DNA of 64,000 bases from Pantanalinema sp. GBBB05. Its GTDB lineage: Bacteria; Cyanobacteriota; Cyanobacteriia; Leptolyngbyales; Leptolyngbyaceae. Below, one piece after another: positions 57,405 to 63,189 of the stretch. Location of the stretch: the NCBI RefSeq assembly GCF_016743235.1, contig NZ_VRZD01000005.1, positions 175,622-239,621 on the forward strand. Direction: 5' to 3'. Below the pieces are notes generated by a model, which was given only the letters and a program-made list of their open reading frames with translations, had not been told where the DNA came from and ran no database searches. The translations under genes were made by a program, and so were the position numbers. How positions within the stretch are numbered: position 1 is the first letter of the stretch; the number at the start of each line of letters is the position of its first letter.

Positions 57405-58475
57405 ATGAAATTCAGTCTATTCTATTTTTCTGGTGATGGTTCTACAACTGATCACAACAAGTACCGCCTATTAATCGAAGGGGCTAAGTTTGCCGATCGT
57501 CACGGGTTTGCCGGAGTTTGGATTCCTGAACGACATTTTGACGCTTTTGGCGGACTTTATCCCAATCCTGCTGTGGCTGGAGCCGCGATCGCGATGCTCA
57601 CGGAGCATATCCAAATCCGTTCTGGCAGTGTGGTGATGCCTCTACAACATCCATTGCGAGTGGCTGAAGAATGGGCAATGGTGGATAACCTATCGCAAGG
57701 TCGGGTCAGTCTTTCGTTTGCTCCAGGCTGGCATCCTCATGACTTTGTTCTGTATCCCGAAAATTACGCCAACAAAAAAGATATTATGTGGCGCGATATC
57801 CAAGTGGTGCAGCGACTCTGGCAGGGTGAGGCGATCGAGCTGACGGGAGGAAATGGCAAATTAGCCCAGATTCGGACGTTTCCGAGACCCTTGCAAACCC
57901 GCCTCCCCATTTGGATTACCGCTCTCTCAGACGATACCTTTGTGGAAGCAGGCAGAATTGGCGCACATATCCTGACGTCACCGCTGTATCAAAGTGTGGA
58001 TGAGATTTTTCGAAAAATCACCTTATATCGTCGATCGCGGGCACAGCATGGTCATGATCCCCAAAGCGGTCAGGTGGCATTGATGATTCATACCTTCCTG
58101 GGCAGTGATATCCAGGTTGTGAAAGCCCAGGTCAAATCACCCTTCAAAAATTATCTGAAAACTCATTTTGATTTAGTCGTCAAATCAGCAGGGGATCTAC
58201 GATTTTCGATCGATCCTCATACGCTCACACCTCAAGACCTGGATGATTTATTAGAGTTCAGTTTTGAGACTTACTTCAATGGCAAAGTACTGATGGGCAC
58301 TCCCGATCATTGCCAAACACTGATCAGCTATTTTCAACAAGCTGGAGTGAATGAAATTGCCGCTTTGATTGACTTTGGGATTGAATTCGATGATGTGATG
58401 GCAAGTTTAAATTTGCTGAAAGACATGAATCGCGATTCCCATCAAACTCGATCTTTACAAGCTTCCTGTTCTTGA
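57405..58475 (+). CDS. Luciferase-like monooxygenase (LLM) family flavin-dependent oxidoreductase
   Basis: Typical LLM N-terminus MKFSLFYFSGDG...RLLIEGAKFADRHGFAGVWIPERHF. Confidence 0.8.
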   Translation: MKFSLFYFSGDGSTTDHNKYRLLIEGAKFADRHGFAGVWIPERHFDAFGGLYPNPAVAGAAIAMLTEHIQIRSGSVVMPLQHPLRVAEEWAMVDNLSQGRVSLSFAPGWHPHDFVLYPENYANKKDIMWRDIQVVQRLWQGEAIELTGGNGKLAQIRTFPRPLQTRLPIWITALSDDTFVEAGRIGAHILTSPLYQSVDEIFRKITLYRRSRAQHGHDPQSGQVALMIHTFLGSDIQVVKAQVKSPFKNYLKTHFDLVVKSAGDLRFSIDPHTLTPQDLDDLLEFSFETYFNGKVLMGTPDHCQTLISYFQQAGVNEIAALIDFGIEFDDVMASLNLLKDMNRDSHQTRSLQASCS

Positions 58476-58491
58476 TTTCTGAAATTTAGCA

Positions 58492-61400: not shown

Positions 61401-63189
61401 ACAACTGCGGCAGTTCCTCGAACCGCGACTACCAAAATATATGCTGCCAACGGCATTTGTCATCCTGCCAGCCCTGCCACTTAATGCTAATGGTAAGGTC
61501 GATCGCCAGCGATTACCGGCTCCAGAGTTAACCCGATCGGAGGTTACAGCCCCTTTCATTGCACCCAGAACGCCTACAGAAGCAGAGGTTGCCCAAACGT
61601 TTGCTGAGGTTTTAAATCTGGAGTCCGTAGGGATAGAAGATGATTTCTTTGAGTTAGGCGGGCATTCCTTACTCGCAACCAAGTTATTAGCCCGGTTGCT
61701 TGCCGTGTTTCCAGTCACACTCTCGATCGTGGATCTGTTTCAATTACCCACAGTAGCTGGTTTAGCAACTCGAATCGACCAACAGCTTCTGCAAGCGTCA
61801 TTCGCCATTGAGAAAACGGTCATTCACTCGTCTTTGCGGCGTATGGCTAGAACACCAGCGACACCAATTCCTCTCTCGTTTTCGCAGCAATACATTTGGC
61901 GGATCCATGAAGCGAGTCAAACAGGAACAACACTGAATAGCTCGATCGTGGTGCGGATTACGCGATCGCTAACTCCAACAGTCATGGAACAAAGCTGGAA
62001 TGAGTTAGTACGTCGTCACGAAATTTTGCGTACCGTCTTCAAGCTAGTCGATGGGCAACCAATGCAATTTGTTTTACCAACGTTGCACCTGCCCCTGATT
62101 TATGCCGATCTGCAATCCTACCCCCTGGCAGAACGTGAATCCATCGCCTTTAACCAGGCGATCGCACTCGCCCAACGCCCCTTTGATCTGACCACGGCTC
62201 CATTGCTACGCCCAGCATTGTGGCAACTCTCGTCTCAAGAATATTGGTTATTGATTACCATGCATCACCTCATCACTGATGGTTGGTCATTTGGTCTGTT
62301 ATTACAGGAGTTAGATACTCTCATCCAAGCCTTTTCTCAAGAGCAACCTTCTCCCCTCCCCGAGGTAGCTCTGCAATACGCAGACTTTGCGATGTGGCAG
62401 CAGCAGGAATATGACGCCGCAACGATCGCCCAGCAACTTCACTATTGGCAACACAAGCTCACCAGTGAATCCCAACAATCCGCCACCTCCTTTCTGGCTC
62501 AACCTGTGTCTAGTCAGCAAGCTGCCCATTATTTCACCCAACTATCAGACAACCTTGCCAGTCGGGTCGAGTTCTTGAGTCGGACATTAGGAGTCACCAG
62601 TTTTGCAGTTTTACTAGCTGCCCTCAAACTGGCGCTGGCAGCATGGAGTGGACAGCAAGACATCTGGATTGTCACCACAGTCGGTAATCGGACAATCCCT
62701 GGCACAGAACATATGCTGGGCTGTTTCATTAATGATGTGATTTTGCGATCGCACTTACTACCCGAACAGACCGCAACTACATTGATCCAACGCTTACAGG
62801 GCGACATCCAGGAGGCAATTGACCATAAGGATGTCCCTTTAGATCAGGTGATTCAGCACACCCAAGATTTATGCCCCTACAAGCTGATGGCAAGCATTAC
62901 CATTACATCATCGACTCAAAACATAGCCCAAACACCTGGTTGGGAAGTGGTTGAGGTGCAGACCAAACAGCAGCAGTTACATGACATGACATCCGAGTTA
63001 TTTACTAATGATATCCCACTCGAAATTTATGTTGAAGTATCGACCTCGATCGGAGTGATTGTGAATTACAGCACCCAACTGTTGACCACAGAAATGGTCG
63101 ATCGGTTATTTACACTCTACCAGAACATCCTCACCGCTCTCTTGGCTCGCCCTGCAAGTCAGTTGAATGAACTCTTGCACCTGACATGA
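58492..63189 (+). CDS. NRPS module: C - A - PCP - terminal C domain (no TE)
   Basis: C1 [9 protein letters not shown], A domain [17 protein letters not shown] / FDAAAEE / [13 protein letters not shown] / YKTGDRGRY / [37 protein letters not shown], second condensation-type domain HHLITDGWS. The ORF ends without a GxSxG thioesterase. Confidence 0.9.
   Translation: [1565 protein letters not shown]

Follow-up and report, generated by a model that had tools for sequence, protein, structure and literature searches.

Several bacterial assembly lines built from nonribosomal peptide synthetases (NRPSs) and polyketide synthases (PKSs) lack a terminal thioesterase (TE), and termination by a condensation-type (C) domain is already established or proposed for FkbP, crocacin, aeruginoside, apratoxin and fatuamide. 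The crocacin enzyme CroK is described as releasing its product hydrolytically through a condensation-like domain (Mueller et al. 2014, as cited in PMC5640695), and FkbP of FK520 as having the order C1-A-PCP-C2 (A, adenylation; PCP, peptidyl carrier protein; Gatto et al. 2005, as cited in PMC3075265). Among TE-less cyanobacterial NRPS/PKS lines, a terminal C domain has been proposed to release aeruginoside and apratoxin (PMC3075265). FatQ, from the fatuamide A (fat) cluster of a Leptolyngbya sp., is a C-A-PCP-C protein encoded right after a KS-AT-KR-carrier PKS, and the fatuamide authors also propose release by its second C domain (PMC11877528). Here, we analyzed a 64,000-nucleotide stretch of the cyanobacterium Pantanalinema sp. 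GBBB05 (contig NZ_VRZD01000005.1, positions 175,622 to 239,621; hereafter the window), which encodes a C-A-PCP-C protein without a TE or reductase (R) domain, the terminal NRPS, at its 3' end. Its sequence context suggests that it is probably the last module of a salicylate-capped, thiazoline-containing metallophore line, in which the terminal C domain would release the chain from the PCP, most likely to water. As such, it is a well-documented further example within a known metallophore class and introduces no new principle; the current understanding of NRPS termination is unchanged by it.

The fat cluster resembles the window in several further components: a benzoate-CoA ligase family enzyme (FatD), a salicylate synthase (FatE), a KASIII protein (FatG), a Cy-A(Cys)-PCP protein (FatH; Cy, heterocyclization), a KS-AT-KR-carrier PKS (FatP), and genes for major facilitator superfamily (MFS) transporters and TonB receptors. 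It differs in the Gly-specific A domain of FatQ, in the far larger number of PKS/NRPS modules that separate FatH from FatP, in its type II thioesterase FatA, and in the modules that follow FatQ, while a luciferase-like monooxygenase is not mentioned in the text of PMC11877528; FatQ is likened to the window NRPS by domain order, not sequence. Set beside it, the window cluster looks like a short version of the fat line. CroK and FkbP, compared likewise by domain order, close bacterial lines with a condensation-like domain where a TE would be expected, but their sources are a myxobacterium and an actinomycete, they act on Gly and pipecolate, and the chemistry described for them is hydrolysis and macrolactonization, respectively. 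The aeruginoside protein differs in its order, C-A-PCP-C-PCP, and apratoxin AprL in combining a C domain with a defective A domain and no carrier. The window holds a salicylate synthase-like enzyme, an aryl-acid ligase, Cy-A(Cys)-PCP, a PKS, a TonB receptor, two MFS genes and an AraC regulator, a set that matches the salicylate-capped cyanobacterial metallophore clusters of the fatuamide, leptochelin and lusichelin type, among which the fat cluster comes nearest. Judged by this gene content, the terminal NRPS is the last gene of such a cluster, spanning 42735-63189.

A first-pass annotation, made from the letters alone, had described two condensation-type cores in the terminal NRPS, HHSAGDAWS at the N-terminus and HHLITDGWS after the PCP. 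Both are present, at aa 179-187 (nt 59026-59052) and aa 1258-1266 (nt 62263-62289), respectively, and Pfam matches for 58492-63189 (plus strand) comprise Condensation twice (combined E 5e-183), AMP-binding, AMP-binding_C and PP-binding. The second core follows the GGHSL serine motif of the PCP (aa 1056), the C5 motif variant of the terminal C domain lies at nt 62716-62751, and the open reading frame (ORF) stops at what is usually the C/A linker (...ELLHLT followed by the stop codon). Together with the co-directional ORF at 57405-58475, from which it is separated by 16 nt, it fills the interval. As side features, the first C domain carries the variant HHxAxDAWS, with Ala replacing the usual Gly, in all 7 orthologs, and an N-terminal helical stretch of ~40 residues (58492-58620) could serve as a docking element for the PKS tail.

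The same annotation held that the ORF ends at 63189 without a hydrolase domain and that neither a type I nor a type II TE is present in the window, and both points stand. Pfam recovered no hydrolase in the terminal NRPS, whose sole GxSxG string, GWSFG, is part of the second HHxxxDGWS motif. No PF00975 thioesterase was found among the window ORFs of ≥120 aa, all scanned except four that overlap each other or a larger ORF, and tblastn of two TE and two thioester-reductase domains from database NRPSs against the whole window returned nothing at E≤0.01. Likewise, no degenerate A, TE or R domain lies in 63190-64000. Two generic alpha/beta-hydrolases are encoded in the window, at 5975-6877(+) and 27480-28415(-); we rejected them as release enzymes, as they do not belong to the thioesterase family and both lie ≥14 kb from the first biosynthetic gene, with a transposase, signaling genes and transporters in between. 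Downstream of the terminal NRPS, a 162-aa Cys-rich ORF with several CxxC pairs (63274-63762, plus strand) matches neither Pfam nor NCBIfam models and does not occur beside the orthologous clusters, and we do not count it as a cluster member. A Logan contig, 93% identical, ends 237 bp past the terminal NRPS gene.

To what type the terminal C domain belongs is indicated by a PDB sequence search, in which the best matches were LCL elongation C domains: Txo1 (2e-48), Txo2 (5e-46) and TycC6 (2e-43). Epimerization domains (TycA, GrsA) scored only ~1e-11 and heterocyclization structures ~1e-12, and the fungal C_T domain of TqaA, likewise a terminal condensation-fold domain, was a far weaker match than an ordinary LCL domain (1.7e-9, rank ~50 of 59 PDB matches). 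Modeled with AlphaFold from 19 relatives (mean pLDDT 84), the domain is a complete two-lobed C domain, and its Foldseek neighbors are the same LCL structures (TM 0.76-0.78). LCL-type C1-C5 motifs are present, including PLSFSQQ, and H154, H155, D159 and G160 do not vary across the 19 aligned sequences; the canonical C5-C7 motifs and following A domain that make up an elongation context are lacking. Thus, as far as sequence and model allow, this is a full-length and catalytically intact descendant of the LCL type. An epimerase was ruled out by these scores (~1e-11 versus 1e-48 for LCL) and by HHLITDGWS, which is not E-type, so that the epimerase classification that the first-pass annotation had named as refuting its reading did not materialize; a Cy assignment fails because the motif is HHLITDG rather than DxxxxD, in addition to the low scores, and a fungal-type C_T because of the distance of TqaA. 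HtmB2-CT, a bacterial terminal domain (PDB 8Z0Q/8Z0R) that we could trace to hangtaimycin only, is one of the best matches by structure (TM 0.78), but in sequence (1e-35, 24% identity) it is no closer to the window domain than elongating C domains are.

Comparison of orthologous clusters provides the evidence for what this domain does. Six clusters with the same gene order end in C-A-PCP-C, followed by unrelated genes that differ by case: Lin0512 and a DnaJ/WD40 protein, convergent, in Pantanalinema rosaneae CENA516, whose NRPS is 79% identical to that of the window; two MFS genes and a histidine kinase in locus L004; a CHASE-domain protein in L005; FecCD permeases and ExbBD in L007; a conserved small ORF, MFS and salicylate genes in L009; and an RND efflux pump in Chroogloeocystis siderophila (L088). 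A downstream TE or NRPS gene, which the first-pass annotation had given as a reason to abandon its reading, follows in none of the six, nor does a reductase: they yielded no TE or R match, and tblastn in nine related loci found no TE. In the window and these six clusters alike, C-A-PCP-C is the last protein, with nothing downstream to elongate to. Across the six full-length orthologs, the terminal C domain is 57-91% identical and always keeps HH(L/I)ITDGWS; its conservation is only slightly below that of the first C and A domains, and it is therefore under selection and no remnant.

The strongest argument comes from Nodularia (L090, GCA_020702635.1). This cluster shares the order KASIII-like protein (without a carrier-domain match on record), TubC_N-Cy-A-PCP, KS-AT-KR-ACP (ACP, acyl carrier protein), luciferase-like monooxygenase (LLM) and C-A-PCP, and the A code of its last NRPS, DAEDIGTICK, is near-identical to that of the window. 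It differs in having no terminal C domain and, instead, a separate 455-aa protein of TubC_N and thioester reductase, so that, judging from domain content, release in Nodularia is reductive. Because a bona fide release domain stands in Nodularia where the window has its terminal C domain, comparative genomics marks the latter as most likely the off-loading catalyst. The first-pass annotation had pointed to terminal C domains that off-load chains by amidation or macrocyclization, in fungi (C_T) and in some bacteria; the reductase swap supports off-loading, while the TqaA score (1e-9) speaks against any particular kinship with the fungal C_T domains. Separately, the last NRPS of Pseudanabaena sp. 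BC1403 (L089, 12099-14447) no longer has an A core, a PCP serine (GGHFL) or a terminal C domain, although nothing in the LLM or the upstream genes looks damaged; the pathway in this strain is probably inactive or truncated.

The terminal C domain is, moreover, part of a wider group of cyanobacterial terminal domains. A genome scan with one genome per species, queried with an alignment of the terminal domain, returned 80 loci. For 13 C domains ≥38% identical to that of the window, and for another at 36%, the ORF closes 0-30 aa past the domain, whereas C domains ≤35% identical mostly have ≥600 aa after them, with a minority carrying tails of ~35-43 aa. In a neighbor-joining tree of 200 C domains, the window domain falls in a clade of 19 tips, all cyanobacterial and all the last domain of their protein (bootstrap 98/100, computed on a 76-taxon subset), which is nested among internal LCL domains. 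The clade has the C5 motif GCFINDV, against GFFVNTL in internal relatives, lacks the LPTDxPRP segment, and has diverged from those relatives in the C6/C7 region and the HQDxPFE/C7 segment; we quote this signature by motif, as alignment residue numbers are offset by a few positions through dropped sparse columns. Other clade members close NRPSs of quite different content, and their last A domains have Leu, Val, Thr, Pro or Tyr-like codes. One recurrent Nostocales locus (L014, L015, L016, L018, L025 and L074) encodes a 2130-2170-aa A-PCP-C-A-PCP-C protein with a terminal C domain of the same clade, matched at about 10001-11400 in each of the six loci; we know of no product for it. An MFS gene directly follows in five of the six, with none near in L074. 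In four of these loci the first A domain lacks Asp235 (e.g. TARDIFIGNK) and the second has a Leu-like code, while both A domains of L074 have the Val-type code DAFWLGGTFK.

The residue that the terminal C domain would off-load depends on the adjoining A domain, for which a polar or cationic substrate had been suggested; the FDAAAEE string that had been quoted for it lies at aa 700. We read the specificity code against a GrsA ruler, which reproduces GrsA DAWTIAAICK, and the method is validated by ApnA A1, whose code read from the alignment, DVESIGVIAK, equals that published for strain PCC 7821. The window code, DAEDIGSIVK, is identical in every ortholog readable in full. Among single A domains of solved structure, ApnA A1 comes nearest (4D4G, 623 bits); above it stand only LgrA chains, each with two A domains and scores that sum two matched stretches. 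Published ApnA-type codes are DVEDIGAIEK (Arg), DVEDIGGIEK (Arg and Lys) and DVEDIGIIAK (Arg and Tyr), and the bacitracin BacB Lys code DAESIGSVCK matches that of the window at 7/10 positions; a literature search for the exact string 'DAEDIG' returned nothing relevant. As two acidic residues, E239 and D278, sit in the pocket, a cationic substrate is expected, Arg first and Lys second, in keeping with the earlier suggestion.

The stand-alone LLM between the PKS and the terminal NRPS is a member of the MupA/Atu3671 family, scoring 474.6 bits against TIGR04020 (curated cut-off 244.45). It matches the monooxygenase domain of PuwE (PDB 6KET) at E 1e-105 over 337 residues, with ~55% identity hand-counted from the printed alignment. 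In PuwE, this domain lies between PKS and NRPS modules and, with an aminotransferase, is credited for the 3-amino-2-hydroxy acyl unit of puwainaphycins, its own part being the 2-hydroxylation of an acyl chain extended by the PKS (PMC4219810); a similar monooxygenase domain is annotated in microginin MicD. The window LLM shares the position between PKS and NRPS modules but is a separate protein with no aminotransferase present, whereas the PuwE domain is embedded in a megasynthase next to one. By analogy, it probably 2-hydroxylates the ACP-bound malonate-derived unit, and the alternative of the first-pass annotation, tailoring of the heterocycle or formation of a hydroxylamine, finds no support in so close a homolog of PuwE. 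The LLM is present in all orthologous clusters and is 100% identical to a protein listed by NCBI for Pantanalinema sp. GBBB05; stand-alone homologs (70-87% identity) occur widely among cyanobacteria, with siderophore biosynthesis as the annotated role of some. It accompanies both C-terminated and reductase-terminated clusters and hence is not tied to the terminal C domain; we also considered it as a partner in the release step and rejected this, as it is kept with the reductase variant and with the decayed last NRPS.

Taken in order, the proposed pathway would begin with the salicylate synthase, whose product, salicylate, the benzoate-CoA ligase family enzyme would activate for transfer to the ACP fused to the KASIII-like domain. 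Condensation of the salicyl unit with Cys and cyclization would give a hydroxyphenyl-thiazoline, one malonate unit would extend the chain, its beta-keto group would be reduced, and the LLM would probably hydroxylate C-2 of the malonate-derived unit. The first C domain of the terminal NRPS would then accept the polyketide from the PKS ACP and couple it to the cationic amino acid (Arg, or Lys), and the terminal C domain would cleave the acyl-Arg/Lys thioester from the PCP, replacing a thioesterase. We favor water as the single most likely nucleophile, leaving a free C-terminal carboxylate, for several reasons: clade members follow unrelated last residues, whose Leu, Val, Thr, Pro and Tyr-like codes argue against the side chain of the last residue as a general nucleophile; no amine-forming gene was found among the cluster genes within the window; the Gly added by FatQ is the free C-terminus of fatuamide A; and hydrolytic release by a condensation-like domain has a documented precedent in crocacin. 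The predicted [M+H]+ of the linear dihydroxy acid is 440.160 (Arg) or 412.154 (Lys).

Several points weigh against this assignment and lend weight to its rivals. The release role is drawn from genome comparison, and a downstream partner beyond 64000 is set aside only by analogy with the orthologs. A trans-acting hydrolase may be encoded elsewhere in the genome. In the fat cluster, modules continue after FatQ (PMC11877528), and in locus L019 another NRPS gene follows the terminal C domain, so that a trans-elongation role may apply to the clade as a whole. These two cases are also what one would expect if the domain were the first half of a split elongation module whose partner A-PCP is encoded elsewhere, as are its LCL type and canonical active site, and the ~35-43 aa tails of terminal C domains outside the clade might be docking elements. 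We nevertheless consider a split module unlikely: no NRPS gene follows in the six orthologous clusters (up to 10 kb downstream in L004 and L007), clade members end 0-30 aa past the domain, Nodularia has a reductase at the same position, and the motifs C6/C7, like the PxDRPRP segment of the C-terminal lobe, have drifted away from those of elongating relatives. The canonical HHxxxDG motif, for its part, suits aminolysis at least as well as hydrolysis. It would fit transfer of the chain to a free amine of primary metabolism, such as a polyamine or agmatine, to give a C-terminal amide, and TE-less aeruginoside assembly, with its extra terminal C domain, does yield amine termini. Against this stands the lack of an amine-supplying gene among the window cluster genes, which is not direct evidence against a common cellular amine; we hold such a transfer to be quite improbable.

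Mycobactin-type siderophores contain a caprolactam derived from a terminal Lys, and release here might similarly be intramolecular, through attack of a Lys epsilon-amine or, alternatively, closure of a 6- or 7-membered depsi-ring by the hydroxyl installed by the LLM or KR. The acidic pocket residues E239 and D278 are compatible with Lys, as is the likeness to the BacB code; a 2-hydroxyl from the LLM would lie six atoms from the thioester; and FkbP of FK520, with the same C1-A-PCP-C2 order, is described as proposed to macrolactonize (cited in PMC3075265). Side-chain attack is, however, no property of a clade whose other members follow Leu, Val, Thr and Pro codes, the closest characterized A domains favor Arg, and the LLM is equally present where a reductase releases. 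Cyclization is accordingly rather improbable in our estimate, and its mycobactin-like form, with terminal Lys, was dropped as a leading candidate and kept as a minor rival only. Least of all do we credit the possibility that the terminal domain is an epimerase, a Cy domain, a fungal-type C_T or an inactive relic, with an unlinked hydrolase performing release. Generic alpha/beta-hydrolases do exist elsewhere in the window, yet the database scores place the domain with LCL, PLSFSQQ and HHLITDGWS are in place, the catalytic motif is invariant, and the domain is conserved in 7 orthologs and in the 19-member clade; we assign this scarcely any probability.

A bolder interpretation would make the terminal C domain a member of a previously undefined, cyanobacteria-specific off-loading family, recognizable by HH(I/L)ITDGWS, GCFINDV and a remodeled C-terminal lobe, a bacterial counterpart of fungal C_T that is interchangeable with a reductase and uses the LLM-installed 2-hydroxyl or the Lys/Arg side chain to form a cyclic morpholine-dione or lactam; taken as a whole, we regard this as improbable. 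What the analysis adds to the earlier cases is the terminal-only clade, the natural swap between terminal C and reductase, the cationic A code and the assignment of a PuwE-type LLM. With six genes, the window cluster can serve as a compact model for the salicylate-capped metallophore pathways of cyanobacteria; its predicted product is small and combines a hydroxyphenyl-thiazoline with a (di)hydroxypropanoyl unit and either Arg or Lys. The terminal C/reductase swap could be used for studying TE-independent release, and the 19-member clade with its motif signature could let genome miners separate off-loading from split-module C domains in cyanobacteria.

Upstream of the terminal NRPS, the cluster (Table 1) starts with the benzoate-CoA ligase family enzyme, which probably activates salicylate, and the salicylate synthase-like enzyme, whose TIGR03494 score falls just under the cut-off. 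In the KASIII-like domain, the catalytic His of FabH aligns with Asn, a replacement also found in the Chroogloeocystis ortholog, while the Cys and second Asn are kept. As the catalytic His is replaced, the KASIII-like-ACP protein, the probable salicyl loading unit, would act as a salicyl-CoA:ACP acyltransferase rather than a decarboxylating ketosynthase. Classical salicylate loading uses a salicyl-AMP ligase and an aryl carrier protein, and loading through a KASIII-like-ACP, if true, would be unusual by comparison. The A domain of the following NRPS has a Cys-like code. The KASIII-ACP protein ends in ...EREIFSL (48990-49034) and precedes this TubC_N-starting NRPS (TubC_N at 49201-49380), just as the last NRPS of Nodularia ends in ...EREELEI (L090, 14530-14780) ahead of its TubC_N-starting protein; both tails look like short linear motifs bound by TubC_N docking domains.

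Table 1. Features of the metallophore cluster and the terminal NRPS in the window
Feature	Position	Strand	Basis
TonB-dependent receptor	36563-39169	-	Pfam
Conserved 134-aa ORF	39275-39679	-	no Pfam match
MFS	39688-40947	-	Pfam
AraC regulator	41103-42215	-	Pfam
Benzoate-CoA ligase family enzyme	42735-44318	+	TIGR02262, 497 bits
Salicylate synthase-like chorismate-binding enzyme	44315-45664	+	TIGR03494, 322.7 bits (cut-off 325.15)
MFS exporter within cluster	45835-47127	-	Pfam MFS_1; weak match to EntS model
KASIII-like domain fused to ACP	47427-49034	+	Pfam; alignment to FabH
NRPS: TubC_N docking, Cy, A, PCP	49201-52695	+	Pfam; Cy motif DLLVFDAWS; code DLYNIGIIWK
PKS module KS-AT-KR-ACP	52713-57332	+	Pfam; AT motifs GHSIG/HAFH, malonyl-type
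Stand-alone LLM, 356 aa, MupA/Atu3671 family	57405-58475	+	Bac_luciferase; TIGR04020
Terminal NRPS, C-A-PCP-C, 1565 aa, no TE or R	58492-63189	+	ORF list, translation, Pfam
First condensation domain, aa 44-491	58621-59964	+	Pfam best stretch
Adenylation domain, aa 511-1002	60022-61497	+	code DAEDIGSIVK
PCP, aa 1032-1095	61585-61776	+	Pfam PP-binding; GGHSL at 61657-61671
Terminal condensation domain, aa ~1121-1565	61852-63186	+	PDB sequence search, AlphaFold/Foldseek, ortholog motifs, clade

Beside the biosynthetic genes, the 134-aa ORF and its MFS neighbor recur as a pair next to the orthologous cluster in L009 (42% and 67% identity), and the small ORF is probably a conserved, uncharacterized cluster member. 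Farther upstream, two CrcB fluoride channel genes stand in tandem (35478-36319, plus strand); an Rfam scan of the window recovered no family at the gathering threshold, the fluoride riboswitch included. An IS630-type transposase (23930-24884, plus strand) is split into an HTH ORF and a DDE_3 ORF, 4 nt apart, which reflects either a frameshifted copy or programmed frameshifting.

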